Shown: positions 15,203-42,292 of the stretch, in pieces
How the letters are laid out: each line of letters begins with the position of its first letter
How positions within the stretch are numbered: position 1 is the stretch's first letter
DNA from: a virus
Lineage: Duplodnaviria; Heunggongvirae; Uroviricota; Caudoviricetes
IMG/VR virus record: IMGVR_UViG_2651869755_000015
Coordinates: 1-42,292 of that record
Reading direction: 5' to 3' (one strand)
Length of the DNA stretch: 42,292 bases
Translations under genes and position numbers: made by a program
The notes under the pieces: generated by a model
Told to the model about the DNA's origin: nothing
What the model saw: the letters and a program-made list of their open reading frames with translations, nothing else
Database searches by the model: none

Positions 15203-15279
15203 TGGCGTGGCATGCAGGATTCGAACCTGCGACCAACCGCTTAGAAGGCGGTTGCTCTGTCCAACTGAGCTAATGCCAC
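15203..15279 (-). tRNA. tRNA-Arg (anticodon UCU)
   Basis: Minus-strand 77-nt sequence GTGGCATTAGCTCAGTTGGACAGAGCAACCGCCTTCTAAGCGGTTGGTCGCAGGTTCGAATCCTGCATGCCACGCCA folds as a cloverleaf (7-bp acceptor stem, GTTCGAATC T-loop, anticodon loop CTTCTAA, 3' CCA). Confidence 0.85.
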
Positions 15280-27197: not shown

Positions 27198-27198
27198 C

Positions 27199-28896
27199 AT
27201 GCCAATTTACACAGATGATCCGGGACAGGGAATTAACCAGCCAATTGGCAACGCGCCAGCAGGGCTTGGCGAATCGCTGCTTTCTTCCCTTAAGCAGGGA
27301 TTTGAAGAGGGGCCGGTCATGTCCGGCTACCGCTTTGCGCAGGCCGACTCGCTGGCGAATGACCAAAACTCTACAGTTATCAGTAAGCAGGAAGCGGATG
27401 AGCTCCTGAAGCAGTACGGCGTAAAGAGCATAAACGTGCCAGATTCTGGCGTTACGCAGGCTTTTCTCGATCATGTTATTGCCGAACGCAAAGATTCTCT
27501 GGCACGCCAGCAGATCGCGATGTCGGCACCGAGCGGGTGGGTAGCCACGCCGCTTAATTTCGCAGCCAGCCTAGCTGGTTCAATGGCAGATCCTGGTAAC
27601 GTGGCGCTGGCGCTGGTTCCGTTCGCTGGAGAAGCAAAGGCGGCTTCTGTGCTTGGCCGATTTGGCGAGCGATTTGTTGCTGGTGCACGCATGGGGGCAG
27701 CGCAGGCGTTGGTGACCGTGCCGCTTACCGGGCTGGCAGCGGCGGCGGAAGGTGACGACTTCACCTATAGCAACGCGTTGGAAAGTACTTTCTTTAACAC
27801 GATGGCTGGCGGTCTAATACATGCCGGCGGCGGCCTTATCGCCGATATCGTGCGACCGCGTCGCGTTCCCGATGCTGCAACGGGAGAGTCCCCGGCGTTT
27901 TCTGGCGATGCGCAGCCAACCCCGGTGATAACGCCTGACAACATTCCGGCGGGCGTGAATATCCCTGAGGTTGGCGCTAACGCAGATCTGGCGGCGGCCA
28001 TTTCCAGTGAAGCGGAGAGCTACGCATACAGCCGGGCTTATGACGACGTGGTTCCTGACTATATGGCGCGCCAGCAGGAGTTACAGAGCGGGCAGATCGG
28101 TAACGTTGCCGACCTGCGTGCCGAGCTTGCGGCTAATCAACGTCATGCTGACTCGCTTGATGCGACGCTGCAGCAGCGCACCAAAAAGTATCAGGGGCAG
28201 CGGATGAAGTTTAAGGATGCGCGCTCTAGGGCACTGAAAGAGATTCAGGCCGAGAAAGACGCCATCGCTGCACGCAATCAGGAGATCAACACATCGCTGG
28301 AGCAGAACGCGACAGCAGAGCAGGCGCGCTGGCGCCAGTCTCAGATTTCCCGCGGCGAGATCCCCGACGACCTGAAAGTCACCATTTCCGAGCGTGCGCA
28401 GCAGATCCTGGACGGCATGCAGATGTCGCCGGTCGCTGGCGCAGTTCGCACTGCCGCAAGCGCCATCAGGGATGCTGACTGGAACGTGAACCAGCAGGCG
28501 TATCGCGCTGCGCTGGCACACATGATGGAAGGACGTAGCCCAGATGTTGAGCCCTTCTATGAACTGCACAAACCAGCACTGCGTGAACGCGCCATCCATC
28601 GCATACAGAACCCGGCACGGCAGGTTGATGAAACGGCTCGCCCAGCAAGCGAAACAGCCGATCGGGTTTATCAAGAAACGCAAAAGGCAGATCATGAAAT
28701 TACCGCTGCCGCTGCAGACCTTGATAACGAGCTCAACCTGAGTAACGCCCTGCTTGACGATATCGCTGTCGATAACCCTGATCTTGCGACCACGTTGCGC
28801 CAGAAACTCAATGATATTCGTGCCGACGCCAGCGACAATAGTATGAGCAACGCTTTCCGGGCATTTGCCGCCTGTATGATTAACCGGGGGATGTGA
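27199..28896 (+). CDS. Internal virion/ejection protein
   Basis: 565 aa Ala-rich protein in the ejection-protein block. Confidence 0.45.
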   Translation: MPIYTDDPGQGINQPIGNAPAGLGESLLSSLKQGFEEGPVMSGYRFAQADSLANDQNSTVISKQEADELLKQYGVKSINVPDSGVTQAFLDHVIAERKDSLARQQIAMSAPSGWVATPLNFAASLAGSMADPGNVALALVPFAGEAKAASVLGRFGERFVAGARMGAAQALVTVPLTGLAAAAEGDDFTYSNALESTFFNTMAGGLIHAGGGLIADIVRPRRVPDAATGESPAFSGDAQPTPVITPDNIPAGVNIPEVGANADLAAAISSEAESYAYSRAYDDVVPDYMARQQELQSGQIGNVADLRAELAANQRHADSLDATLQQRTKKYQGQRMKFKDARSRALKEIQAEKDAIAARNQEINTSLEQNATAEQARWRQSQISRGEIPDDLKVTISERAQQILDGMQMSPVAGAVRTAASAIRDADWNVNQQAYRAALAHMMEGRSPDVEPFYELHKPALRERAIHRIQNPARQVDETARPASETADRVYQETQKADHEITAAAADLDNELNLSNALLDDIAVDNPDLATTLRQKLNDIRADASDNSMSNAFRAFAACMINRGM

Positions 28897-31445
28897 TGGC
28901 AGCAAACGAATTTTTGACGCAGTGCGAGCGCAGTGTAAATGCTGCCGCTGGTCGCGAGCTTTCTTCCGATGAGATGGAGTCGCTGGTGCGTGACATGAAC
29001 GACACCACTAGGCGAATTCTGGCGACCAATGAGGCGCTGTCTCTGGAAGAGGCCGCGATGCGCGCAGCGGAAGAACTGAGCAATGCCGATATGCTGGCAA
29101 AACAGATTGAGGCTCGCAATAAGGCAATCAACGCCCGTATTGCCGCACAACGACTTAGAGAGCTTCGTACTATCTGGAAAGACCGCCCGGATATCGGGCT
29201 TGAAGCAATGCTGGTTGGCCGCAACGATGCGCGTACCGGCGCCCGCCGGTCGGTATCTTCGGAGGTGGCGCAACTGCGCGGCAAGTATCATTCCGGTATC
29301 AACTACGATTTTGACCGTGCCGGGCTGGTGCAATTCATCGCCAGCGGCAGCAATGACCGGGAAATTGCCGATGCAATGTGGCGCATAGGGCGCGGGCAGT
29401 CAACTGACGGTATGACAAAGCAATCCGTAAGCGCTGCACAAATCATCATGAAATGGCAGGAAACTGCGCGCATTGATGAGAACCGCGCCGGGGCATGGAT
29501 ACGCAAAGAGCCGGGCTATATAGTGCGCCAGTCACACGACATCATGAAGATCCGCGCCGCAGGTTATGAAGCATGGCGAAATGCTATTCTCCCGCGCCTT
29601 GATGAGCGCACTTTTGACGGCGTGGCTGACCGCGAGCAGTTCATGCGTAACATTTATAACGGGCTGGCTTCCGGCGTGCATCTTACATCTGAAAAGCCCG
29701 ATTGGATGAATGGCTTTAAGGGATCGGCGAACGCAGCTAAACGCGCCAGCCAAGAGCGAATTTTGCACTTCAAAGATGGTATCTCGTGGCACGAGTACAA
29801 CCAGCAATTCGGCACCGGCAGCCTGCGAGAAGCGCTGTTTGGTGGCTTAAACAGCGCTGCCCGCACAACGGGCATGATGCGCGTACTGGGCACTAACCCA
29901 CAGAACATGTTTAAGTACCTGACGGACGCCATTGCTGAAGATATCAGCAAATCCGGAAGACCGGCAGCGTTGGCTGACTACATGACGAAGGTGCGTCGCA
30001 TTAACCGTACCGTAATGCCGCAGGTTGACGGCTCGCTAAATATTCCTGGCAGCGTAGGCTGGGCCAATGCGTCGGCGGCTGTACGCGGCTGGTTGCGTAT
30101 GAGCCAACTTGGTGGCGCGGTAATCTCATCGTTTAACGACGTGCCTATCGCCGCTACCGAGATGCGCTACCAAGGGCAGAATTTTATGCAGGCGTTGCTT
30201 GGTGCTATGAGAGGCCGCTTCACGCGTTACAACAGCGCGGAGCAGAAAGAGATCCTTTCCTCTATCGGAGTTTATTCCGACTCCATGACGCAGGAAATCA
30301 TCCGGCGCATATCTGGTGATGACACGCTGAATGGAAAGCTTGGTCGCGCGCAGCAGCTTTTCTTTAAGTACAACCTCATGAACTTCTGGACCGAGAGCGG
30401 TCGCAACAGCAACGCCATGATGATAACCAACTGGCTTGCAAAGAATGCTGACCAGTCTCATGCGCGGCTACCGGAAGACCTGCGACGCGTGCTGGATCTG
30501 CACGGTATTGGCGAACGTGAGTGGGAAATTTTTCGCAACATGGACATGGCCGATAGCGAAGGTCGTAAGTTCATGACGACCAGCGGCATCCGCGGCGTGC
30601 CTGACGAAGTGATTGCCGGTTATGTAGAGAGTAAGGGGATCAAACCAACGCAGCGCGCTATCGCTGACGCACGCGATCAATTGGAAGGGCAGTTGCGCGG
30701 CTACATCCTTGACCGCCTGAATATCGCCATGTCAGAGCCTGGCGATCGCACGCAGGCGTTTATGAAGATGGGCACGGTGCCAGGAACGGTGGCTGGGGAA
30801 GCAATACGATTCGCTGGTCAGTACAAATCGTTCACTGCAAGCTTCATGCAGAACGTACTAGGACGCGAAGTATTCGGGCGTGGTTATATTCCTGCTGGGC
30901 TTGGTGAGTCGAAAACCGGATCGCTGACGAATGCGCTGCTACGTAACGGGAAGGGGGCTTTCCTTGGTGCTGCAAACCTCTTTGTCTGGGCGACTATGTT
31001 TGGTTATATCTCCATGCAGTCAAAACTCATGCTGAAAGGGCAAACACCACGCCCGGCAGATGCCAAGACGTTTCTCGCAGCCGCATCTCAGGGGGGCGGT
31101 CTTGGCATCTTGGGTGACTTCATGTTTGGTGAGGTCAACCGCATGGGGGCCGGGCCGGTTACGTCGCTAATGGGGCCAGCAGCATCGAACGCTGACAGCA
31201 TTATCACGCTGCTCCAGCAGACCACGAGAGGGGATGCAGATTTGGGTGACTGGTATCGCACGGCACTTGACAATACGCCATTCCTCAACGTGTTCTGGCT
31301 TCGTACGGCGATGAATGGTTTAATATTGAACCGGATACAAGATGCCCTTGACCCAGGCTCTCTTGAGCGTTATCAGCGCCGTGTTGAGCGTGAGCAGGGG
31401 AACGACTTTCTGATCCCACCATCGCAGTTCATGCTAGGTAAATAA
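28896..31445 (+). CDS. Large internal virion/ejection protein
   Basis: ATG at 28896 overlapping the previous stop; 850 aa; last gene of the high-GC structural block. Confidence 0.5.
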   Translation: MAANEFLTQCERSVNAAAGRELSSDEMESLVRDMNDTTRRILATNEALSLEEAAMRAAEELSNADMLAKQIEARNKAINARIAAQRLRELRTIWKDRPDIGLEAMLVGRNDARTGARRSVSSEVAQLRGKYHSGINYDFDRAGLVQFIASGSNDREIADAMWRIGRGQSTDGMTKQSVSAAQIIMKWQETARIDENRAGAWIRKEPGYIVRQSHDIMKIRAAGYEAWRNAILPRLDERTFDGVADREQFMRNIYNGLASGVHLTSEKPDWMNGFKGSANAAKRASQERILHFKDGISWHEYNQQFGTGSLREALFGGLNSAARTTGMMRVLGTNPQNMFKYLTDAIAEDISKSGRPAALADYMTKVRRINRTVMPQVDGSLNIPGSVGWANASAAVRGWLRMSQLGGAVISSFNDVPIAATEMRYQGQNFMQALLGAMRGRFTRYNSAEQKEILSSIGVYSDSMTQEIIRRISGDDTLNGKLGRAQQLFFKYNLMNFWTESGRNSNAMMITNWLAKNADQSHARLPEDLRRVLDLHGIGEREWEIFRNMDMADSEGRKFMTTSGIRGVPDEVIAGYVESKGIKPTQRAIADARDQLEGQLRGYILDRLNIAMSEPGDRTQAFMKMGTVPGTVAGEAIRFAGQYKSFTASFMQNVLGREVFGRGYIPAGLGESKTGSLTNALLRNGKGAFLGAANLFVWATMFGYISMQSKLMLKGQTPRPADAKTFLAAASQGGGLGILGDFMFGEVNRMGAGPVTSLMGPAASNADSIITLLQQTTRGDADLGDWYRTALDNTPFLNVFWLRTAMNGLILNRIQDALDPGSLERYQRRVEREQGNDFLIPPSQFMLGK

Positions 31446-31447
31446 TA

Positions 31448-32008
31448 ATGAAGGCAATTATATTTTTTGTTTCAATATTGATGTCTGCATTTTCTTTTGC
31501 AGGGCAAAATGTTAAATGCGAACTTCAATACTTTGGAGATAGCGATAAATTTAAGGTAACTCAGTTTTCTTTTATGGGGATTCCATCTGATTCATACCTT
31601 TATACCTGTGCCGACTGTGGAGGCATCCAGATAAACGTGTTCCCATCTATTCAGACTGTTGCCTCCTACTCATTTGAAAACAACATTGATTTCGAAAGGA
31701 AAATCAATGCTGAATACAACAGAAAAGACATAGCTAAACTTGAGATGGAAAACGTTACTCAAGGCGGGAGAATAAAATATTCAATCACCGATACTGGTTT
31801 GGCAGAGTTTTACCCAGAGGGCAAAAAGATAAGCTACCTCTACTTTTTAGCCAAGCAACAAAATGGTAAAGAACAAGTAGGTTATTCAGGATTTGTTACC
31901 TCTAACGGGGATAAGTCATGCTCAATTATTGCGACATATCCAGGAAAAGAAATTTCTTTTCTGGGAAGTAAATCTTTAAGCTACTTTATGAATCATATAT
32001 CAATGTAG
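31448..32008 (+). CDS. AT-rich secreted protein (signal peptide), accessory
   Basis: N-terminal MKAIIFFVSILMSAFSFAGQ signal-peptide-like; visibly AT-rich codon usage; followed by palindrome copy 3. Confidence 0.55.
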   Translation: MKAIIFFVSILMSAFSFAGQNVKCELQYFGDSDKFKVTQFSFMGIPSDSYLYTCADCGGIQINVFPSIQTVASYSFENNIDFERKINAEYNRKDIAKLEMENVTQGGRIKYSITDTGLAEFYPEGKKISYLYFLAKQQNGKEQVGYSGFVTSNGDKSCSIIATYPGKEISFLGSKSLSYFMNHISM

Positions 32009-32022
32009 CGTGACATGTCACA
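32009..32022. repeat. 14-bp perfect palindrome CGTGACATGTCACA (copy 3, inverted orientation)
   Basis: Exact reverse complement of the 14-mer at 12194 and 14598. Confidence 0.85.
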
Positions 32023-32123
32023 GGCCGCTTTCGCGGTCTTGTTTTTAACGGATGCCACCGCCACCCGGGCGGGAATCCGCAGAACGCCCACCGCAGCGGG
32101 AGCCGTCAGCAGCAGTGTCGCTG

Positions 32124-32627
32124 TTATACTATTGAGTTAAATGATATCTTGTCCTTAATATCATTAAGTTTGCCATATATCTTTTTTGCATAAAAATCAG
32201 CTTCCTCAATAAACTTCGACTTCTCATTATCAGGCATATTTTTGAAGGTATGTGCACATGTATATTGAGAGTAGTAATTGTGAAACTTGTTATACATATT
32301 ATTGAGTTCTTGTAAGTCTTTTTTATACTCAGGAAGGTATATGTTTATTAGCATTTCCATCGTTTGCAACGGATTGACTTTTGATGTGTCAAATTTACTA
32401 TCAGAGTGGTAACTGGCATTGTTAACAAAATTGAGAATAGCCATTTTGTTTGAAGCTATGACTTTTTCAGTAAGTATGCAATTTGTGAATAATTGCTCAC
32501 GTTTATCTCTTAATATTTTTTCGCGCTCTAATTTTATGCTGTTTTTGTATCCTTGCCTTGCACTTATGTAAGTAGAAACTATAGCAATAACTGCACCTAT
32601 CAATGCGCCTAAGATAGTATTATCCAT
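32124..32627 (-). CDS. AT-rich membrane-anchored protein (1 predicted TM), accessory
   Basis: ATG at 32627 after AGGTGG; N-terminal hydrophobic helix ILGALIGAVIAIVSTYI; Lys/Asn/Tyr-rich soluble domain. Confidence 0.5.
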   Translation of the reverse strand: MDNTILGALIGAVIAIVSTYISARQGYKNSIKLEREKILRDKREQLFTNCILTEKVIASNKMAILNFVNNASYHSDSKFDTSKVNPLQTMEMLINIYLPEYKKDLQELNNMYNKFHNYYSQYTCAHTFKNMPDNEKSKFIEEADFYAKKIYGKLNDIKDKISFNSIV

Positions 32628-32652
32628 ATAAGCCACCTAAACTGCGTAAAAA

Positions 32653-33516
32653 TTATTTCCTGCCACTTCTGTAGTATATGTTGCGACCATTTTTGGTCAC
32701 ATTAACAACATGACCCTTTGTTTCTACTTTGTTATTGGTTGCCTTATATACTTCAAAGTCAAACCATGATATATGACTTATTTCGTCTATAGATACCATA
32801 ATTTCTAGACCTTGAACTTTCTTTTTGCTTATCCCTTTTATCGCAGCACTGCGCTTAATTTGGATTTCACCTGGGTAAGCGTTTGTAAATGTAACAGATA
32901 AATTTTCTTTGTTTCTGTACCCTGACATTAAAGGAACAAAAGATATGTGTTGGTGTGGCCCTTGATTTTCCGTTGGCTCACCAGAACCATTTATTATTCC
33001 AACGTATACTTTATTTGATGATAAAGTAATTAACATTGGTTTCTTAGGATCTGATTCGATTGCATCAAGCAATAGCAAATCTAAAGAACCCTGGGAGTAC
33101 GTTTTTCGCAATACTCTAGCTTTCATTGCCTCTGATATTTTGTCATAAATATCACGTTTATAAAAACAACCTAAAAGAAGATCTTTTAGCCAAACAAAAG
33201 ATACATAACACAAAGAGAAGCAAATTGATGTGACTGACAGAAGAAGTAGCCACATGTAAATTCTATCTGTTTCTGGTTTTGACGTTACATTAAAAGTTTC
33301 CACCATGTCGTGAACTAGGTGAAAATCAGGATATTTACATTTTATAAATGCGGCAATTATTACTGAAGCAACAAGGCAATATGTACCTAATGCAGCTACT
33401 TTCATATAAAGAAGCTGGCCTTCATGTCGGTATAAACGGAAATAATGATACTGGTTAGCGGTTATCATAATATAACCACTAACCAGAATGGGGATAATTA
33501 GAAGAGCTAACAACAC
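32653..33516 (-). CDS. AT-rich multi-pass membrane protein, accessory
   Basis: 287 aa; about 3 hydrophobic helices in the first ~110 residues then a soluble domain; GTG start overlapping the upstream stop (TAGTG). Confidence 0.55.
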   Translation of the reverse strand: MLLALLIIPILVSGYIMITANQYHYFRLYRHEGQLLYMKVAALGTYCLVASVIIAAFIKCKYPDFHLVHDMVETFNVTSKPETDRIYMWLLLLSVTSICFSLCYVSFVWLKDLLLGCFYKRDIYDKISEAMKARVLRKTYSQGSLDLLLLDAIESDPKKPMLITLSSNKVYVGIINGSGEPTENQGPHQHISFVPLMSGYRNKENLSVTFTNAYPGEIQIKRSAAIKGISKKKVQGLEIMVSIDEISHISWFDFEVYKATNNKVETKGHVVNVTKNGRNIYYRSGRK

Positions 33517-33725
33517 TATTTCCTTACAGTGGCAAGATCCTGTTTAACAATTGCAGCAGCGAGACGACGCATCTCTTTAACCTCAGGAAGCTCAGAAATT
33601 TGCTGTGATGAGATATATACTCCACCACGCTTGTTAACCTGCGCTGACGCCGGAACTTCTGCATTTTTTGCCTGAGGGCTGGGTGCATTATCCCTCGTTT
33701 TTGTACGAGCGAACCAAAATCCCAT
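33516..33725 (-). CDS. Hypothetical small protein (69 aa), first gene of the accessory operon
   Basis: Normal-GC ORF translationally coupled to the membrane protein; operator dyad upstream. Confidence 0.4.
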   Translation of the reverse strand: MGFWFARTKTRDNAPSPQAKNAEVPASAQVNKRGGVYISSQQISELPEVKEMRRLAAAIVKQDLATVRK

Positions 33726-33751
33726 ATCTCCTCCTCATGTAAACACATGGT

Positions 33752-33766
33752 TTACCTTTAGGGTAA
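33752..33766. promoter_or_regulatory. Operator-like dyad TTACCTTTAGGGTAA
   Basis: Perfect dyad in the 113-bp spacer upstream of the accessory operon; preceded by ACACATGGTT. Confidence 0.55.
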
Positions 33767-33838
33767 TAGTACGCTATTCACTCCCAGTCTGCAATCTGTA
33801 CAGAATTATTTAAAGGCACATCCCTGTGCCGCCGCCCG

Positions 33839-34573
33839 TCAGAAGAACCCTGCCTTGTCGTTGATGTACTCCGCGTGGGTCTGGATATCACGCAGGCATT
33901 TGCTCACACCGACGATGTAGCAGAACATGGTGGTCAGCTCCGCCGCCGCGCCCGATACGTCGTGCCCGTCTTCCTGTAACTGGTTCAGCAGATTCATCAG
34001 CAGTGAGTTCTCCGTCAGGCCGAGAACACCAGACGGCGAATGAATCAGGCTGCGGTAGCCGGGCTTCAGTGGGGCACTGTATTCTTTTTTGTCTTCCAGC
34101 TTGATCGCCTCCATAATGGCGGGCATGAATTTTTCAATTACCTGAGTGGCCTTTGATAAATCAGCTCCACCTGAGAGACGAACATCTCCACTGACATTTG
34201 CGGGTTTTCTGTCGAAGTAGCAATCTTCCAGTTTTTCGAAGACCTCCCACGCTTTTTCAGTCTCAAGAATTTTCGCATGTCGTGCTGCACCGCGAGCGGT
34301 CCATAAGAAAAGATGACTTACTTTTGGTGCAATATTAAGCAAACCTCTTTGAGAGGACTCGTTCTTAAATGCTCGTAATTCTTCGCCTATCAGCTTGAAA
34401 CAATGTTTTCCCTCAATGAATCGATCTGCATTTCGTTGATAGTTTTGACGAATCAGTTTGGGTTCTGTGTCATACAAATCAGCAAGCATTTCTGTAGTCA
34501 TTACAGGGATGTTGCAATGAGTTGTTATCGGCAACTTATCAATAGCTATATTACGCATTTTCATTGCCTCCAT
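33839..34573 (-). CDS. Antirepressor-like protein (ORF6N/Ant N-terminal domain plus C-terminal domain)
   Basis: N-terminal VMTTEMLADLYDTEPKLIRQNYQRNADRFIEGKHCFKL matches the ORF6N/Ant pattern; C-terminal ~70 aa homologous to the 35372-35629 product. Start may be 34558 or 34564. Confidence 0.65.
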   Translation of the reverse strand: MEAMKMRNIAIDKLPITTHCNIPVMTTEMLADLYDTEPKLIRQNYQRNADRFIEGKHCFKLIGEELRAFKNESSQRGLLNIAPKVSHLFLWTARGAARHAKILETEKAWEVFEKLEDCYFDRKPANVSGDVRLSGGADLSKATQVIEKFMPAIMEAIKLEDKKEYSAPLKPGYRSLIHSPSGVLGLTENSLLMNLLNQLQEDGHDVSGAAAELTTMFCYIVGVSKCLRDIQTHAEYINDKAGFF

Positions 34574-35057
34574 CTTTCACGACGAAATAGCAATTATCTT
34601 TATAATCTAACTGGATGAACTTTATGTTTTCAGGGAGTTTTACAGAAAGAGTTTTTGCACAAGCAAAACCAAAATCTGCGCCAGAAGCATCCATATACCT
34701 TAATAATTGTTTTAATGCTGAAGGAGAAAAAGTATCTACCTTCACCTCAACAGGGTAACCATCTTTTGTTTTTAGGTCTGGTTGACCTGGTCCACCAAGT
34801 ATTTCAGCGTTAAGGTATTTTGCTATTTCTGGATAAGCGTTGTATTCAGAGCGTAGTTTTGCCTTGTTATCGACTGCTAGTTGCATAAGATGATCAAACA
34901 AATTGGTATCTAAATCTGCCCCTTCATCCCACATTCTATTTCTACAGCTAATCAATTCACTGACCAGTGGTGCACTTTCTTGCCTTAGCATAAGAAGGAG
35001 TGGAGAATTAGAAATTAACCAATACAGATCGTCGTTTGAGATTTTTTGGCCTGGCAT
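34551..35057 (-). CDS. Hypothetical protein (168 aa) co-transcribed with antirepressor
   Basis: ORF with stop overlapping the ant start region. Confidence 0.45.
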   Translation of the reverse strand: MPGQKISNDDLYWLISNSPLLLMLRQESAPLVSELISCRNRMWDEGADLDTNLFDHLMQLAVDNKAKLRSEYNAYPEIAKYLNAEILGGPGQPDLKTKDGYPVEVKVDTFSPSALKQLLRYMDASGADFGFACAKTLSVKLPENIKFIQLDYKDNCYFVVKDGGNENA

Positions 35058-35211
35058 AGCGATACCTCTACTAGTAAGTTACCCACCACCGCAACGCCAA
35101 TTGCTGGTGGTGAACTGGACAAGGTTGGCGTACCGGCCTAGTAGGTACCGGCGCACCTTTCGGTGCCCCTGCCCAGCCCACCATAATTCGGATATGACTG
35201 TGCTATACGCA

Positions 35212-35235
35212 TAAAAAAACCACGTCTGGCGTGGT
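35212..35235 (-). terminator. Rho-independent terminator downstream of small antirepressor gene
   Basis: Minus strand ACCACGCCAGACGTGGT followed by TTTTTTT. Confidence 0.55.
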
Positions 35236-35325
35236 ATGCGCCTACTAGTAATCCGGGACGCCAATCCCGGCACTGGATTTTGCCAGTGCCTGATTACTAT
35301 GGCACAAGAGGAGTGCGATGTAAAT

Positions 35326-35340
35326 TTACCGCAAAGGTAA
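35326..35340. promoter_or_regulatory. Operator-like dyad TTACCGCAAAGGTAA
   Basis: Perfect dyad in the structured noncoding spacer 35058-35371. Confidence 0.5.
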
Positions 35341-35371
35341 ATATAAGCACTCCACTTGGTAATTGCAAACC

Positions 35372-35629
35372 TTATCTGGTTTGCTTTCGTAATTGTTCGG
35401 CACAATAGTCGAGATGTGTTTGCAGATCCTGCATAGACATCTGTGAGCTGGTGACGTAGTTAATCAGTGCAGTCAGTTCGGCAAGTGGGCCATCGACATT
35501 AAATCCATCCTTATCGAGATCCCGGAGTAATTTCATCAAGTGCGATCCCTCCACCAGTGACCTGACGCCTCCCGGCGTGTGAATCCTTTCGGTAAATCCG
35601 TCTTCCAGTGGATAGTGATACTGCTGCAT
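35372..35629 (-). CDS. Small antirepressor-like protein (homolog of Ant C-terminal domain)
   Basis: ATG at 35629 after GGAGAAG (track uses TTG at 35647); IHTPGGVRSLVEGSHLMKLLRDLDKDGFNVDGPLAELTALINYV aligns with IHSPSGVLGLTENSLLMNLLNQLQEDGHDVSGAAAELTTMFCYI of the 244-aa Ant; LexA box 22 bp upstream. Confidence 0.5.
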   Translation of the reverse strand: MQQYHYPLEDGFTERIHTPGGVRSLVEGSHLMKLLRDLDKDGFNVDGPLAELTALINYVTSSQMSMQDLQTHLDYCAEQLRKQTR

Positions 35630-35650
35630 CTTATCTTCTCCATGCAATAA

Positions 35651-35720: not shown

Positions 35721-35824
35721 TATCTGTTCGTATTCACACCATTTCTATCCATATGTGGTTTTTCAGGTAATAGAATAACCAGATATGCGGCGCAACGGGT
35801 GCTGCGACTATCTGGAGATTTAAC

Positions 35825-38800
35825 ATGACGGTCTCAACCGAAGTTGACCACAACGAATACACAGGTAACGGCGTTACGACATCATTTCCGTATACCTTTA
35901 GGGTTTTCAAGGAATCTGATCTGGCAGTACAGGTGGTTGACCTTGACGAAAATATCGCTGTGCTGGCTCTTGATACTGATTACACTGTCACTGGGGCTGG
36001 TGGATATAATGGCGGTAATGTAATTCTGTCGAAGGCGTTAGCTAACGGTTATCAGATTTCTATATCACGAGAGCTACCAGTTACGCAGGAAACTGATCTG
36101 CGAAATCAGGGAAAGTTTTTCGCTGAGGTGCATGAAGACGCGTTAGATAAGCTGACGATGCTGATACAGCAAGTCCGCGGTTGGTTTAGCCTGGCGCTGC
36201 GCAAGCCATCATTTGTGGCAAACTATTACGATGCTTTGAATAATTACATCCGCAATTTGCGCGATCCTTCCAAGCCTCAAGATGCAGCTACAAAGAATTA
36301 TGTTGATAATATTGTTAATGTGAATATTAACAGGACATTACGGGTTCCAGATAATTTTATTGAACCACTTCCTCCAGTTCATTTACTGGAAGAAACTGTC
36401 ATTGGTATCGTCAATGGTAAACCTATAGGTGTACCTGTGCCTTCTGGCAGTGCCGCAGATGTTCTTCTGCAATTATCTAGCGCAGGAGAAGGAAAAGGTG
36501 ATGCATTAATTGGTGTAAGGCAGCCATTTGCCGGGGCTGTAACTATAACTCAGCATGAAAACAATGCTCTTTTCTTAAATGTAAAACAATTCGGAGCAAT
36601 TGGGGATGGGAAATATCATCCATTATCTGAGAGGTTTTCTTCAATTTCTGAAGCAAAATCCTTATATCCTTTTGTTGACTCATTATCTCAGTCAATAGAC
36701 TGGGCCGCGTGGCAAGCTGCCATTAACACAGGAAAGGTTATTTATGGTACTGATAATGCGTATGTAATAACGGATACGTTAACACCTGTTTCTGGTGGTG
36801 GGATAATTGGTCTTGGTGTGGGCAAATGGGTCTCCGGATATACTGCAACATTTGCTCCTGATATTACCACAGGGACCACATTCCTGATGTACGGTGTAGG
36901 AAATAAAAAATATACTGTAGATTGTGTTTCTAATATGGATGTTAGTGGTGGTGTGGTTTCTAATCCATCTTCCGAAGACCCGTATACAACAACGGCACCT
37001 GCGTCATCATATGATTTATTGGATTTTACTAACGGTGATGCTAATGGGGCTACAAGAGCCACGCTTAAACCATTCTCTGCCGCAATATTGATGCCAGAGA
37101 CAGGGTGTGTTCGCCTTGAGAACTTTCGTATTGTTCCATATTTCAATGGGCTGGATGGTTATAAAGACATTGCAAATACCGGTCTTGGCGATGAGTGGGA
37201 TGTAGGTATTTGGTCACGTGCGTCTTTTGGCAATGAATACCGCAATTTGCAGGTGGTTGGATACTGGCGCAAGACGGCACTTTTAAAAACGAACATTCCT
37301 GTATCTGGCACGCTGGCCGCTCAGGGCGAGGATGAAAACTATTATCACTGTAGATTCCAGGGATTCAAGGGTGTTTCGATCCGCGCCCATGATGTATTCC
37401 GAATTACAGCGGTAACGTCCAGCACTATCGAAATCCCATGGTCAGCAAGCCACACCTTCGAAACGTCCGGGGTTTTAAGATCGGGAGGCAGGAATTTCAC
37501 TTATTCAGGATTATCCGTATCCGGTGATAAGTTAGTATTTACTGGAGTGTCTAACGCTTCTGAGGCAACAGTAGGTTCTACTATACGGCGAAATGACATA
37601 GATAACTTTGGTATGGCGGGAACGCAATTTTTCGATTGCTACATTACCAGCCTGTATCACCACACACATCTGCTTGCCACATCGCAATACCTGTCTCAGC
37701 CATTCAGCCGGCCATCAGAGTGTATGGAGGTTTCAGGGGAACCAGTTCGCGGTGTACAGGTACATGCAGGAACCATTCAGGGATGGGATGATGTTCTTAT
37801 TCATCTACATGACTGTGGAAATATGAACTTTTACAGTACATATTTCGAAAGCCAGCCAGCATATGTAACTATAAATGGTGGTAATGCTATTGGTTATGGA
37901 GCACGTATGATAGCTTCCCGGCAATCAACAAGCTCATTACCATATGCAGCAGGGAATACTCGAGTGCTTAGAATGGTCGGGTGCTCTGAAGGCAATGGCG
38001 TTGACTGGGGTCCTGTATTTAACAACTATACAGGAGGAAGATATAATTCTGGAGACGGTGTATTTAACCCCCGCGATGCATTTATAGACCATAAATCTCT
38101 TCCTGAGCAGTCAGGAGGTGAGTCAAGACTCGTATCACAAAAAGGAAATGCCAGAGTAGTATGTGGTGTTGGTAAAACTGTACTGCTTGGACCAACGTCA
38201 GGAGATTGTAATTTACAGAGCAATACTGGAAGTTTAAATATTAGAAGTGGGATAAGAGTAAGAATCGGTCACGCTGATGGAACAGACTGGTGGTTGGCAG
38301 ATGCTAATAAAATAGCTCCTGTTGATGATAATGTTAAAGCTATTGGACAGCCATCAAACAGATGCTCTGTTATCTATGCAGGAACCGGGTCAATCAATAC
38401 GTCAGATGAAACTCTTAAAACAAGATATGATATTCTTAATGCAGAGCGTAATGCCGCTATTGAAATAAAGTCAGTCATCTATAAATTTAAATTTAATGAC
38501 TCAATTAATCACAAAGGAATTGAGTCGTCCAGGTATCATTTTGGCGTTGGCGCTCAAACCGTAGGGGATATTCTTAGAAAGCATGGTTTAAACCCGGAGC
38601 AATATGCTTTTTGGTGTTACGATGAATGGCCTGACGTATGGGATGAAGAGGTGATAACTGAAGAGAGCACAGATCCTGATACAGGTGAGAAAATTTATTC
38701 TCAATATAAAACAGGAGATATGATTCTTGTAAAAAAAGCAGGAGGACGCTACGGAATTCGTTATGACGAATTAGCCATGTTTATATTAATGTCAATGTAA
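35825..38800 (+). CDS. Tailspike/tail fibre with T7 gp17-like N-terminal adaptor and C-terminal intramolecular chaperone-like domain
   Basis: 991 aa; N-terminus TGNGVTTSFPYTFRVF...DTDYTV parallels the recalled T7 gp17 N-domain; Gly/Thr/Ser-rich central region; C-terminal ~150 aa resemble auto-cleaving chaperone (S74-like) domains. Confidence 0.75.
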   Translation: MTVSTEVDHNEYTGNGVTTSFPYTFRVFKESDLAVQVVDLDENIAVLALDTDYTVTGAGGYNGGNVILSKALANGYQISISRELPVTQETDLRNQGKFFAEVHEDALDKLTMLIQQVRGWFSLALRKPSFVANYYDALNNYIRNLRDPSKPQDAATKNYVDNIVNVNINRTLRVPDNFIEPLPPVHLLEETVIGIVNGKPIGVPVPSGSAADVLLQLSSAGEGKGDALIGVRQPFAGAVTITQHENNALFLNVKQFGAIGDGKYHPLSERFSSISEAKSLYPFVDSLSQSIDWAAWQAAINTGKVIYGTDNAYVITDTLTPVSGGGIIGLGVGKWVSGYTATFAPDITTGTTFLMYGVGNKKYTVDCVSNMDVSGGVVSNPSSEDPYTTTAPASSYDLLDFTNGDANGATRATLKPFSAAILMPETGCVRLENFRIVPYFNGLDGYKDIANTGLGDEWDVGIWSRASFGNEYRNLQVVGYWRKTALLKTNIPVSGTLAAQGEDENYYHCRFQGFKGVSIRAHDVFRITAVTSSTIEIPWSASHTFETSGVLRSGGRNFTYSGLSVSGDKLVFTGVSNASEATVGSTIRRNDIDNFGMAGTQFFDCYITSLYHHTHLLATSQYLSQPFSRPSECMEVSGEPVRGVQVHAGTIQGWDDVLIHLHDCGNMNFYSTYFESQPAYVTINGGNAIGYGARMIASRQSTSSLPYAAGNTRVLRMVGCSEGNGVDWGPVFNNYTGGRYNSGDGVFNPRDAFIDHKSLPEQSGGESRLVSQKGNARVVCGVGKTVLLGPTSGDCNLQSNTGSLNIRSGIRVRIGHADGTDWWLADANKIAPVDDNVKAIGQPSNRCSVIYAGTGSINTSDETLKTRYDILNAERNAAIEIKSVIYKFKFNDSINHKGIESSRYHFGVGAQTVGDILRKHGLNPEQYAFWCYDEWPDVWDEEVITEESTDPDTGEKIYSQYKTGDMILVKKAGGRYGIRYDELAMFILMSM

Positions 38801-38813
38801 TAATAAATGCAAT

Positions 38814-38845
38814 AACCCCGAATAAAACAGCGGGGTTATTGTTAT
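38814..38845 (+). terminator. Rho-independent terminator after tailspike
   Basis: Stem AACCCCG/CGGGGTT followed by T-rich tract. Confidence 0.55.
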
Positions 38846-39206
38846 TATAATAATGCTCTTAACTTCTTAAATGATATTTATATGCACTTAGATTATTAAA
38901 TCTATATTATGCCTGTTATTTATGTGTTCTGTTATATGTTTTGCAGGCACTGTTGGCAGCATTAAAGGAAATTGTATTTATGGCGAAATAGCTGGTATCG
39001 TGTTTTTATTGTGCGTAAAAATAACAGACTGCATATATTATTGTATAAAGTTTTGGAAATGAAAACACTCAAACTTACCGCTGTGGATATGTTTTGACCA
39101 TCGCGAATTGGATTGGTAATATTGGGTAACAAAAAACCATAAATGGTTTATCATGCGTAATGCTTTACTGTTCAGGAGGTAGTTATGCATATAAACGGTG
39201 GAAAAC

Positions 39207-39611
39207 ATGTCAGCTCAACTAACCAGTGAAACTTTAAATCAGTGGCTTAGCATGAGTTCTTTGGCGGCAGTGATAGCAGGAGTTCCTCCTGAGGTTGCTT
39301 TGGGGTCTTTGGCTGGGGCGGTGATTTTTGTTACCTCTGCGGTAGAGTATCCCATTCGTCGTCGCGTGCTCTTGTCGATGCTTAGCTTTCTCTGCGGACT
39401 TCTATTCTACAAACCAGCAGCATCAATTCTTATCGGCATAGCCAGCCTGATCCCTACAATCACACAGGATTCTTTCGAGAAAGGGATTGTTTTCTCTGCC
39501 GGTGCATTTGTGTCAGCAATCGTCGCTGTGCGAATTGGGATCTGGCTCTATCACCGTTCCGATAATCCACGCGAGTTAATTCCGGGGAGAAAAGACGATG
39601 GTAACTCATGA
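39207..39611 (+). CDS. Multi-pass membrane protein (holin/antiholin candidate)
   Basis: About 4 hydrophobic segments; first gene of the lysis cluster; start uncertain (GTG 39198 or ATG 39207). Confidence 0.4.
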   Translation: MSAQLTSETLNQWLSMSSLAAVIAGVPPEVALGSLAGAVIFVTSAVEYPIRRRVLLSMLSFLCGLLFYKPAASILIGIASLIPTITQDSFEKGIVFSAGAFVSAIVAVRIGIWLYHRSDNPRELIPGRKDDGNS

Positions 39612-39906
39612 GCTTTTTTTGCTTATCACCAATGCGGTTATTTGCGCCGGTATAGCAGTTCGAGTTGCCACATTTCGGAGAAACGGTTCTCAACACAGGC
39701 GATGGGGTGGGTGGCTTGCTTATTTCCTGATTGTTGCTGCGGCCAGCATTCCAGTTCGTGTCGCTTATGCAATCTGGTTACGCACGCCAATGGCTGTGGA
39801 TTTATCTGAGGTCATTATCAACGCTGTCATGCTTGCCGCGGTTATTAAAACACGCGGTAACGTTGTTCAGATTTTCAAAATATCGAGGTCTAAACATGGA
39901 GATTAA
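39598..39906 (+). CDS. Holin-like membrane protein
   Basis: 102 aa with about 3 TM segments, basic C-terminus; overlaps endolysin start by 11 nt. Confidence 0.5.
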
Positions 39907-40525
39907 ACAATTCCAGCGAGCTGCTGGTATTAGCGAGGCGCTGGCCGCACGCTGGTTCTCGCATATAACTTCTGCGATGAAAGAGTTTGGTATCAGCAAA
40001 CCAGAAGATCTGGCAATGTTTATTGCTCAGGTCGGGCATGAGTCTGTGGGCTTCACCCGGTTGCAGGAGAATTTCAACTACAGCGTCAGCGGACTGGCTA
40101 ACTTCGTTCGGGCTGGGCGTCTCACTCAGGGGCAGGCTAATGCACTGGGGCGACGTGCTGGTGAGCCACCATTGCCACTCGAGCGCCAGCGAGCGATCGC
40201 CAATCTGGTGTACAGCAAACGCATGGGGAACAATGCCCCTGGTGACGGCTGGAACTACCGTGGGCGCGGACTTATCCAGATTACCGGTTTGAATAACTAT
40301 CGTGACTGTGGAAACGGTCTTAAGGTTGACCTGCTGGAGAGTCCTGAACTGCTGGCGCAGGACGAATACGCGGCTCGTAGCGCGGCGTGGTTCTTCTCCA
40401 GCAAAGGCTGCATGAAGTATACCGGAGATATTGCACGTGTAACTCTGCTTATCAATGGTGGCCGGAACGGCATTGATGACCGGCGCGCGCGATACATAAC
40501 TGCCAGTAAGGTGCTGGCGGTATGA
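39896..40525 (+). CDS. Endolysin, glycoside hydrolase family 19 (chitinase-like lysozyme)
   Basis: ATG at 39896 after GAGG; GH19 signature [15 protein letters not shown]. Confidence 0.8.
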
Positions 40526-41004
40526 TCTGGGCATTCGCAAAAGCATACTGGAAACAGTTGGTTATCATGGCGATGCTTGCTGTTCTGGTCATATCAGGAG
40601 TTGTAGCCTGGAATGCACACGGCAGTCGTCAGTACGATGCCGGGTATGCGCAGGCGAAGGAAGACCGCAAAGCTGAAGATGAGATAGTTCGTCAGCACTA
40701 CGAACAGGAGAAATCGATCAATGAACGTGAAGCGCAGCAGAGGATCGACCAGGCGCGCAATGATGCTCTTGATGCTGCCGCTCGCGCTGGCCGGTTGCAG
40801 CAACAACTCTTTGCCATCCGTGAGCAGCTCAGGCAGTATAACGCCATTGTCGGCGCTGGGACGTCAGCCGCAGACACCGGAGTTTTGCTTGCCGACGTGC
40901 TCAGCAAATCTCTCGAGAGAAACAGACAACTGGCAGAGTATGCTGACCGGGCAGCCGAAGCCGGAAGAGTCTGCGAAAAACAATACGACACCCTGACCAG
41001 ATAG
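40522..41004 (+). CDS. Rz-like inner-membrane spanin (i-spanin)
   Basis: N-terminal TM ([18 protein letters not shown]) then coiled-coil periplasmic domain; 4-nt overlap with endolysin. Confidence 0.65.
40760..40996 (+). CDS. Rz1-like outer-membrane lipoprotein spanin (o-spanin), embedded in Rz in another frame
   Basis: Lipobox [11 protein letters not shown] followed by a short Pro-containing peptide; entirely inside the Rz-like gene. Confidence 0.6.
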   Translation: MMLLMLPLALAGCSNNSLPSVSSSGSITPLSALGRQPQTPEFCLPTCSANLSRETDNWQSMLTGQPKPEESAKNNTTP

Positions 41005-41221: not shown

Positions 41222-41761
41222 TTAATTAAACCAGCTGTCCGATTTGTTCTCTTCTGCTTTGCCCACGCTTTTCATCAGATCGCGACCGCCTTCAGTCATA
41301 TTTCTGTTGGCGTCAGCTTCAGATTGCACCACATCGGTTTGCGCAGCTTTGTGCTTCAGTTCCTGATCGATAAATTCGTTTTCTCGCTTAACGCGGGCTT
41401 CTTCTTTCGCCAGCGCCAGTTTTTGTTTCTGAATCTCTAAGCTGCGTAGCTCATCTTCATAACTTTGATCGCGTTTTTTGTCCGCAGAGGCTTCGGCGTC
41501 CAGTTTATCCTGACGAGCTTTCTTATTTGCCGCTGCCGTTGCCGCTCTTTTGTTAGCGGCGGCCTGGGCATTTGCGCGACGTTGCTTCTCTTGCTGGATT
41601 TCCCTGTTGCGCTCCGCGACCCATTCGTCATGCTGCCTTTGCTCTTCATTTTTACCTTGCTGTTCCGCTTCTGCGACAGCAGAGAGTTGATCCTGCAATG
41701 ATGAGGCGATAGCCGGATAGCTTAAGGAGGCTAAGATGGCGCAAAGAAAAACTTTCTTCAT
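41222..41761 (-). CDS. Secreted coiled-coil protein (signal peptide), cargo or host-flank gene
   Basis: MKKVFLCAILASLSYPAIASS signal-peptide-like, then highly charged Ala/Lys/Glu/Gln-rich helix-forming sequence. Confidence 0.5.
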   Translation of the reverse strand: MKKVFLCAILASLSYPAIASSLQDQLSAVAEAEQQGKNEEQRQHDEWVAERNREIQQEKQRRANAQAAANKRAATAAANKKARQDKLDAEASADKKRDQSYEDELRSLEIQKQKLALAKEEARVKRENEFIDQELKHKAAQTDVVQSEADANRNMTEGGRDLMKSVGKAEENKSDSWFN

Positions 41762-41776
41762 GACTCCTCCTGATTA

Positions 41777-42292
41777 TTAGCTCTTTTCAGGACATTTGGT
41801 ATTTGGCTGAATACGCGTTTCGTTATACGTCGTGGTAATAACAACGGCTAAACCTGTCGTAAACTGGCACTCTTTACCCACCTGGGTAGAGGTATACACT
41901 TTGGTGCCTTCCTTATAGGTTAAAGAAACACCTTCCACTAAGGTTTTATCATTCACCATAGAACCCGCTGCCGCGCCTACAGCTCCGCCGCCAACTGCAC
42001 CTGCCGTCGTTCCGGAATTGCTGCCAGACCCGACGTTGTGGCCGATAACACCGCCAGCGACTGCGCCAATAAGCGCGCCGAAGGCTTGTGCGTTCCGTTT
42101 ATTTTGGGAGTTGTCTACGGCAACTTTTGCGGGAAGAATGGAAATAATATTAACGGTTTTAGTTTCTTGTTTGGTATTCAGTTGATCGGTTTGATAAACA
42201 TCGGCAGCATGATCGTCAGCATTTGACTGGCATCCTGCCAGAGTGAATGACGCTAACATTGCCACAGGCAGAAGACATTTTTTAAATTTCAT
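41777..42292 (-). CDS. Lipoprotein with glycine-zipper motif, cargo or host-flank gene
   Basis: Lipobox FTLAGC; GALIGAVAGGVIGHNVG...GAVGGGAVGAAAG glycine zipper; start codon at the last base of the window. Confidence 0.55.
   Translation of the reverse strand: MKFKKCLLPVAMLASFTLAGCQSNADDHAADVYQTDQLNTKQETKTVNIISILPAKVAVDNSQNKRNAQAFGALIGAVAGGVIGHNVGSGSNSGTTAGAVGGGAVGAAAGSMVNDKTLVEGVSLTYKEGTKVYTSTQVGKECQFTTGLAVVITTTYNETRIQPNTKCPEKS

Follow-up and report, generated by a model that had tools for sequence, protein, structure and literature searches.

What polysaccharide does the tailspike of a temperate Escherichia coli phage recognise, and how is the protein built to attack it? This question is raised by a tailspike gene on the plus strand (35825..38800) of the IMG/VR virus record IMGVR_UViG_2651869755_000015, a sequence of the Caudoviricetes whose whole length of 42,292 nucleotides (nt) was analysed and is called the window below. 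The gene starts with ATG and encodes a precursor of 991 amino acids (aa; 107.9 kDa), which is the single tailspike of a temperate podovirus of the epsilon15/phiV10 type. With high confidence the protein consists of three modules, namely an N-terminal anchor, a beta-helix and a chaperone predicted to remove itself, and comparison of the host genomes makes it rather likely that the substrate is the group 2 capsule of types K13, K20 and K23, that is to say, that the tailspike is a capsule depolymerase. The three-module plan is already well known from textbooks and is conceptually unchanged here; what is new is the predicted substrate of a central-domain family that has no characterised member, and this predicted specificity is the useful part.

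Identity of the tailspike and its chassis

According to the list of open reading frames (ORFs), 35825..38800 is the sole long ORF across this stretch, and its product matches PHROG 1171 ('tail spike protein') over its entire length (E = 0). Copies with 99-100% identity occur in E. coli and E. marmotae, in more than 100 sequence clusters, and they are named 'tail fiber domain-containing protein', 'Peptidase S74 domain-containing protein' or 'hypothetical protein' in the databases.

The window holds a prophage whose site in the E. coli chromosome lies between guaA and yfgI. From the integrase, which adjoins guaA, the gene order runs through recombination and replication genes, terminase, portal, capsid and a T7 gp14-like core protein to the large internal virion proteins; on the 3′ side of the virion genes follow the tailspike, two holins, a GH19 endolysin and a DUF2514 protein, and then yfgI and yfgH of the host, with the tailspike directly upstream of the lysis genes. 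This order agrees with the genus Uetakevirus, as do the anchor and the genomic position of the gene. Over its first 483 nt, the tailspike gene shares 80-88% identity with the 5′ ends of its counterparts in phiV10, PAS61, TL-2011b and Salmonella E15-type phages, and it is on this nucleotide identity that the chassis is assigned to Uetakevirus (epsilon15/phiV10 type).

Modules of the protein

The N-terminal tail anchor (aa 1-165; 35825..36319) is formed by a beta-sandwich (aa 8-87) and, behind it, a helix (aa 100-125). In the AlphaFold model of the N-terminus, the predicted local distance difference test (pLDDT) is above 90 at aa 8-87, the helix is formed at aa 100-125 and the remainder is disordered. 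The closest solved sequence in the PDB is domain D1 of the spike Dpo31 of the marine podovirus Carin-1 (E 5e-25), which was described by its authors as a beta-sandwich followed by a coiled coil (PMC13317679), and the best Foldseek match of the anchor model is likewise the Carin-1 fibre (8ck1_B, 7e-12). T7 gp17 is also found by Foldseek (7ey9, 1.3e-5; 7boz, 1.2e-4) with a probability of 1.0, a target template modelling (TM) score of 0.5 and 15-18% identity, and the tail-bound N-termini of the LME-1, PhiM1, Kp9, HRP29 and E1004 fibres are further matches with probability 1.0. The original prediction had called this part a T7 gp17-like N-terminus. At the level of the fold the name is right, because Foldseek matches 7boz and 7ey9 and because 8 of 16 members of the N-terminal family match Phage_T7_tail (PF03906) at E <= 0.1 (best E 3e-8); at the level of the Pfam family it does not hold, since the protein itself reaches 10.8 bits over its full length and 15.6 bits over aa 1-260 against a cut-off of 25.2. 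The anchor therefore has the fold of the gp17 N-terminal domain and resembles gp17 only in fold and remote homology, and its precise name is a Uetakevirus anchor.

The central part (aa 251-816; 36575..38272) is a right-handed parallel beta-helix and the putative depolymerase and receptor-binding domain. Its composition agrees with the Gly/Thr/Ser-rich region that had been described, the enrichment in these residues being moderate (30% in aa 251-820 vs 19.5% in aa 1-165). An AlphaFold model of aa 224-991, built from a 74-sequence alignment, has a mean pLDDT of 89.4 and a predicted TM score of 0.79, and the strongest fold matches of its central part are lyases, hydrolases and depolymerases. In other words, modelling did return a glycanase-type fold, in the form of a confident beta-helix. 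At the sequence level, likeness to solved proteins is limited to the first 60-85 residues of the helix, which match LKA1 gp49, phi297 gp27, GH55 glucanases, phi29 gp12 and the tailspike protein of Sf6. Neither Pfam nor NCBIfam gives a match for the central domain of the window protein, and fragments of four relatives match PF12708.

The family of this central domain is large, with 1346 cluster representatives at E <= 1e-3 and 154 at E <= 1e-30. Its members are only 25-45% identical overall, yet 14 polar residues are at least 75% conserved, namely D405, R435, Y446, D459, R482, Q512, R520, D523, H612, E635, R642, E675, D727 and R739; R520 and E675 are invariant, and D459, D523, H612, E635 and R642 are 95-97% conserved. 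Judging by this conservation, these residues are candidates for the active site or for substrate binding. Phage LF31P3 carries a relative at 41% identity, and the preprint of Gaborieau et al. contains no data on this phage.

The C-terminal part consists of a stalk (aa 817-859; 38273..38401) and an intramolecular chaperone or auto-processing domain of the Peptidase_S74 type (aa 860-991; 38402..38797; 15.3 kDa). The C-terminal ~170 aa match solved chaperone domains in the PDB, that is, 7y5s (Kp7 gp51, 6e-23), E1004 (1e-14), 3gw6 (endoNF, 9e-14), 4uw8 (T5 pb1, 1e-11) and 3gud (GA-1 gp12, 4e-9), and with a family profile the E values against such domains range from 1e-36 to 4.5e-55. Foldseek with the C-terminal model finds 3gw6 at 9e-9 and 3gud at a TM score of 0.74. 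A search for the Ser-Lys dyad, which had been proposed as a check, located both residues: the nucleophile S860 (38402-38404) and the base K865 (38417-38419) lie in the motif SDETLK starting at aa 860, and the stalk arginine R846 (38360-38362) lies 14 residues before S860. S860, K865 and R846 align with S911 (Ala in 3gw6), K916 and R897 of endoNF, for which the roles of the Ser-Lys dyad and of the stalk arginine have been reported (PMC8326128). In the 74-sequence alignment, T859, S860 and K865 are the majority residues (75%, 78% and 84% of the sequences with a residue at the column). The scissile bond is predicted at T859|S860, and self-cleavage would give a mature chain of 92.6 kDa and a fragment of 15.3 kDa. 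The chaperone of about 150 aa that had been proposed at the C-terminus is thus supported by homology to the endoNF, T5 pb1 and GA-1 domains, but its length has to be corrected, as the fragment predicted to be released has 132 aa.

Against this picture of the protein it must be said that the match to Peptidase_S74 (PF13884) has 21.9 bits and falls 0.1 bit short of the Pfam cut-off of 22.0, that the helix beyond its first ~85 residues has no sequence match to a solved or characterised enzyme, and that the model of the central and C-terminal parts is a monomer and so is uninformative on the trimer.

The label endosialidase (GH58) was also considered, one database record being named 'putative endo-N-acetylneuraminidase', and it was rejected because the match is confined to the stalk and the chaperone and the catalytic fold is not a beta-propeller sialidase but a beta-helix. 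Pfam End_tail_spike (PF12219) covers only aa 825-859, which correspond to profile positions 126-160 of 160. The endoNF catalytic entries 1v0e, 3gvj, 3gvk and 3gvl are matched by the profile only at their C-terminal end (chain residues 602-670), and by a single-sequence query only in the last ~34 residues.

Exchange of the receptor-binding cassette

Between anchor and helix lies a neck or linker (aa 166-250; 36320..36574), which holds a recombination joint at aa ~206-224. The neck is modelled at low pLDDT, exceeds the length seen in most relatives (in the alignment it has an insertion against 15 relatives) and gives weak matches to the linker of the Sf6 and P22 tailspikes. Residues ~206 to 991 share 97-99% identity with the C-terminal 790 aa of P22-type tailspikes of ~901 aa; the P22-type protein P0109 aligns from aa 206 with 97% identity, and the DNA match to the P22-type versions begins at nt 669 in 4 genomes. 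These ~901-aa spikes have the P22-type head-binding N-terminus PF09008 and belong to Lederbergvirus-type prophages adjoining argW/yfdC. Among 150 representatives of the central-domain family, the same N module is found in 15 and the same C module in 56. Strain SBF22 (NZ_CP067235.1) even contains the receptor-binding module twice, once behind a Uetakevirus anchor and once behind a P22-type head-binding domain (901 aa). That is to say, recombination in the neck passes the receptor-binding cassette (aa ~206-991) from one phage chassis to another, which is the well-known cassette exchange of tailspikes. The P22-type copy of strain CH10508 (L002 5603-8308) adjoins intS/argW, with a gene for an Arc-family repressor in front of it.

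Capsule locus of the hosts and predicted receptor

The receptor-binding module is present in 15 complete E. coli genomes (n=15), of which 11 have it on a Uetakevirus chassis and 4 on a P22-like chassis only, SBF22 having both. The carriers are diverse: YDC107 is O102:H6 and belongs to sequence type (ST) 964 (PMC6035167), DLL7555 belongs to ST73 (PMC13494036) and carries the wzx/wzy genes of O6, and EC21Z-144 and EC21Z-151 belong to ST2003. Tailspikes with 99.3-99.6% identity are found in DLL7555 and YDC107, and since the module occurs in both O6 and O102 strains, no single O type explains its distribution.

Both DLL7555 and YDC107 have a group 2 kps locus whose region 2 encodes a 1114-aa 'HAD family hydrolase' (krkA) and an acetyltransferase. 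KrkA of DLL7555 (WP_001336789) is identical to KrkA of the K13 reference strain NCTC9022, which is a bifunctional polymerase of 3-deoxy-D-manno-oct-2-ulosonic acid (Kdo) and ribose (PMC12887879); the common backbone of K13, K20 and K23 is ->3)-beta-D-Ribf-(1->7)-beta-D-Kdop-(2-> (Ribf, ribofuranose; PMC12887879; PMC13171606). KrkA of YDC107 differs from that of DLL7555 at 48 of 1114 residues, only three of them (R3K, A62S, N352S) in the Kdo-transferase domain; between the acetyltransferases of the two strains the identity is only 36%. Because this pattern fits the published description of K20, the K locus of YDC107 is tentatively called K20-like.

Across 5426 complete genomes, krkA is found in 65. 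The first form of the locus (L006 15453-19753), in which krkA is followed by one acetyltransferase, occurs in 11 genomes including NCTC9022. The second (L007 23733-28137) occurs in 49, including one O25b:H4 and two O102:H6 genomes; relative to the first form, its KrkA is 95.7% and its acetyltransferase 36% identical, and the differences in KrkA lie mostly in the last 85 residues. Four more genomes have krkA aligned only to nt ~3062, and one has a krkA fragment. The K20-like locus is seen in ST131 (the O25b:H4 strain) and in O102:H6 strains, among others.

krkA is present in 11 of the 15 carriers, namely SBF22, HS4, E22, EC21Z-144, EC21Z-151, YDC107, 702/18, DLL7555, CH10508, UPEC_U013 and CS5L. 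By chance ~0.18 would be expected; the enrichment is thus ~60-fold with a hypergeometric P = 4e-19, a statistic which ignores shared ancestry. If only 4 krkA-positive events are counted among ~8 independent lysogenisations, a number which is an estimate and not measured, P is still ~1e-6. Both phage chassis are found with both K-locus subtypes (K13_K23 and K20-like). The receptor-binding module is therefore associated with hosts that have a Ribf-Kdo capsule, with four exceptions. Strain HS4 has a large chromosomal inversion relative to the K-12 order, with torS-csg-mdoGH at the expected gnd position (L004, NZ_CP142035.1 2010001-2060000).

A similar indication comes from the receptor-binding protein of the lytic Kayfunavirus YZ1 (MG845865), which counts among the closest relatives together with the representatives P0121/P0122. 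It has a same-family central domain and the chaperone, is 77.5% identical in amino acids to the window protein over aa 224-830, and is the only relative above 45% from a cultured phage. The YZ1 subtype was reported in a survey from prophages of O102, O6, O1 and O153 strains, and it was flagged there as probably not O-antigen specific, with a K antigen as the suggested receptor (PMC10408124).

On these grounds the substrate is probably the K13/K20/K23 group 2 capsule. The original prediction stated that the specificity cannot be read from sequence; this is correct for the sequence by itself, but the comparison of host genomes goes further and predicts this capsule.

Several facts weigh against the capsule as receptor. 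The carriers without krkA are XH992, LS45, 23CRST013 and AHB29. XH992 and LS45 have in common another kps region 2, with glf, a sugar dehydrogenase gene and two glycosyltransferase family 2 (GT2) genes; the KpsU of XH992 is identical to that of YDC107, which suggests that XH992 belongs to a related lineage whose capsule genes have been swapped. 23CRST013 has a third K type. In AHB29 (NZ_OZ547246.1), krkA is absent and the expected kps site is rearranged: the island that flanks kpsF in DLL7555 (L006 30145-44777; identical accessions) is joined to cadC via a partial integrase (L014 26624-44000), which suggests that the capsule locus was lost, relocated or rearranged and the tailspike prophage kept. 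A prophage is, moreover, a record of past infection and not of present susceptibility. Since it is such a record, and since capsules are often exchanged or lost in lineages such as these (PMC13171606), the four krkA-negative carriers weaken the inference of a capsule receptor without overturning it. EC21Z-144 and EC21Z-151 come from one patient. The sister receptor-binding domain of YZ1, taken as a replicate, has no megablast match in complete E. coli genomes. Finally, the characterised tailspikes of Uetakevirus and Lederbergvirus are mostly O-antigen specific (PMC10408124).

Alternative receptors and functions

This last point leads to the alternative that survives best, a tailspike with O-antigen specificity, the common case among epsilon15/phiV10-like and P22-like phages, with the link to the capsule as a by-product of clonal descent. 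The precedents are phiV10 for O157, PAS61 for O146 and HK620 for O18, and a survey of these genera found many serogroup-specific receptor-binding proteins (PMC10408124); in 4 of the 15 carriers the K locus is of another type or missing, and LKA1 gp49 and phi297 gp27, to which the helix cap is closest among solved proteins, have O-specific polysaccharide as their substrate. An O-antigen receptor is difficult to reconcile, however, with nearly identical spikes in O6 and O102:H6 strains, with the four O types of the YZ1 hosts, and with krkA in 11/15 carriers vs 65/5426 genomes across two chassis, two attachment sites and two K-locus subtypes. The O-antigen is therefore regarded as an unlikely target, and a less likely one than the capsule.

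The capsule being preferred as the ligand, it may still be asked whether the helix cuts it. That the helix binds a polysaccharide without cutting, or modifies it (for example by deacetylation) rather than depolymerising it, is quite improbable: Pfam finds no esterase (SGNH) domain, the fold matches point to lyases, hydrolases and depolymerases, and D459, R520, D523, H612, E635 and E675 are 95-100% conserved in the family in spite of its low overall identity, which is a pattern like that of an active site. As for another shared glycan (colanic acid, enterobacterial common antigen or the core of lipopolysaccharide) or a receptor not considered here, the carriers do span several lineages and some are without krkA, but near-universal glycans would not predict the 60-fold enrichment of one rare capsule locus, and this alternative is likewise quite improbable.

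Proposed mechanism and chemistry

A capsule-depolymerising tailspike would work as follows. Folding of three chains would begin at the C-terminal chaperone, where trimerisation of the stalk and the beta-helix would be nucleated. In a correctly formed trimer, Ser860 would then cut T859-S860, with Lys865 as its activator and Arg846 as an aid, and thereby free the chaperone. The mature trimer would then plug onto the tail via the gp17-like anchor (beta-sandwich and helix), and its beta-helix would bind and depolymerise the K13/K20/K23 capsule, so that the phage could work its way down to the outer membrane.

With respect to the chemistry, hydrolysis of the beta-Kdo ketosidic bond, hydrolysis of the ribofuranosidic bond and a lyase reaction are the three candidates. 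It is conceivable, as a tentative proposal, that an endo-enzyme of this kind would cut the beta-Kdo-(2->3)-ribofuranose or the Ribf-(1->7)-Kdo linkage of the backbone with the conserved set D459/R520/D523/H612/E635/E675. It is likewise possible, although somewhat doubtful, that with the beta-helix family a phage glycanase for a Kdo-containing E. coli capsule would for the first time be defined by sequence, and that the family would constitute a new glycoside hydrolase or lyase family. It would then correspond to the virion-associated 'KDO glycanase' activities of K13/K20 coliphages, which cut beta-Kdo linkages in K13/K20/K23 polysaccharides and were reportedly described by biochemical means in the 1980s-90s; a literature search did not find these reports, nor any cloned or described depolymerase of a K13/K20/K23 coliphage, and its matches concerned Klebsiella K types.

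Comparison with known tailspikes

The closest functional analogue is the spike of the K1 prophage CUS-3, a temperate P22-like phage, which targets a group 2 capsule and has the same chaperone. The spike endoNF of coliphage K1F is also a capsule-specific podovirus spike, with the same type of chaperone, the same Arg/Ser/Lys cleavage centre and the gp17-like anchor fold; the difference lies in the catalytic domain, which is a beta-propeller sialidase in endoNF and a beta-helix in the window protein. The tailspikes of the other Uetakevirus phages (phiV10, epsilon15 gp20, PAS61, TL-2011b) have the same anchor, the same genomic position and the same plan of anchor, neck and helix, but beyond nt ~485-527 the receptor-binding part is unrelated in DNA, and they target O-antigens (O157, O146, Salmonella O:3,10), whereas the window spike is predicted to be directed at a capsule.

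Other proteins have one part in common with the window protein. LKA1 gp49 and phi297 gp27 (PDB 4ru4, 4ru5), which cleave the O-specific antigen of Pseudomonas (PMC5701251), have other C-terminal domains, and the rest of their helix is without detectable sequence similarity. The type I tail fibre gp51 of Klebsiella phage Kp7 (7y5s) combines a beta-helix with the closest solved chaperone domain, and Dpo31 of the marine phage Carin-1 (28lx, 8ck1) has the closest solved N-terminal domain; each of them shares one module with the window protein, and their hosts and substrates differ. In Dpo31 the C-terminal domain D4 of ~18 kDa is absent from the mature form in crystals (PMC13317679). The receptor-binding protein of YZ1, in turn, sits on a T7-like chassis with a T7-like anchor, unlike the window spike.

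Among the K types of E. coli, K13_K23 has one of the strongest links to invasive disease (PMC13171606). If the predicted specificity is confirmed, the protein would be one of the rare enzymes that cut beta-Kdo linkages within a polymer, and it could be used as a typing reagent, as an anti-virulence tool or as a receptor-binding cassette for engineered phages and tailocins. In addition, the case illustrates that a cross-tabulation of spike module and surface-glycan loci of the hosts allows the class of receptor of a prophage tailspike to be inferred, and O-antigen specificity should not be presumed for the spikes of Uetakevirus and Lederbergvirus.

Signals and surroundings of the gene

A Shine-Dalgarno sequence GGAGA, read from the sequence, is located on the plus strand at 35814..35818, 6 nt on the 5′ side of the tailspike ATG. 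After the stop codon follows a terminator-like hairpin (38809..38842, plus strand) with a 12-bp stem, a 10-nt loop and a weak U tract, whose folding energy is -18.1 kcal/mol (z = -4.9); it was not called in a scan for consensus terminators, because of its loop of 10 nt. The ~400 nt at 38800-39198 are without an ORF of at least 60 aa, and no gene for O-antigen or capsule modification adjoins the tailspike. The lysis cassette (39198-41004) consists of two holin-family genes (Phage_holin_8 and Phage_holin_3_7), the GH19 endolysin gene and the DUF2514 gene. The prophage ends between 41004 and 41222, and host yfgI and yfgH occupy 41222-42292.

Between the internal virion genes and the tailspike there is a block of low GC content (37-46% vs ~51-57% in the virion genes), which comprises five minus-strand ORFs at 32124-35647 and the plus-strand stretch 31448-32008. 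Its ORF 33839-34573 encodes an ORF6N domain and gives weak matches to the PADLOC candidate family PDC-S05, and the remaining ORFs of the block have no Pfam or PADLOC match. The block could be a moron or an accessory island. A role in anti-phage defence was also considered, for which the weak PDC-S05 matches of the ORF6N protein are the only indication.

A gene for tRNA-Arg (anticodon TCT) lies on the minus strand at 15203-15279, between the terminase and portal regions, and is annotated in the prophage of E. coli HS4 too. The two prophages are 96-98% identical through the early and head genes; 24991-35372 of the window, with the internal virion proteins and the low-GC block, has no blastn match in the HS4 prophage; and from 35372 to the end, which covers the tailspike, the lysis genes and the host flank, the identity is 99.4%. 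From this pattern it follows that the tailspike-lysis cassette is common to phages that are otherwise mosaic.

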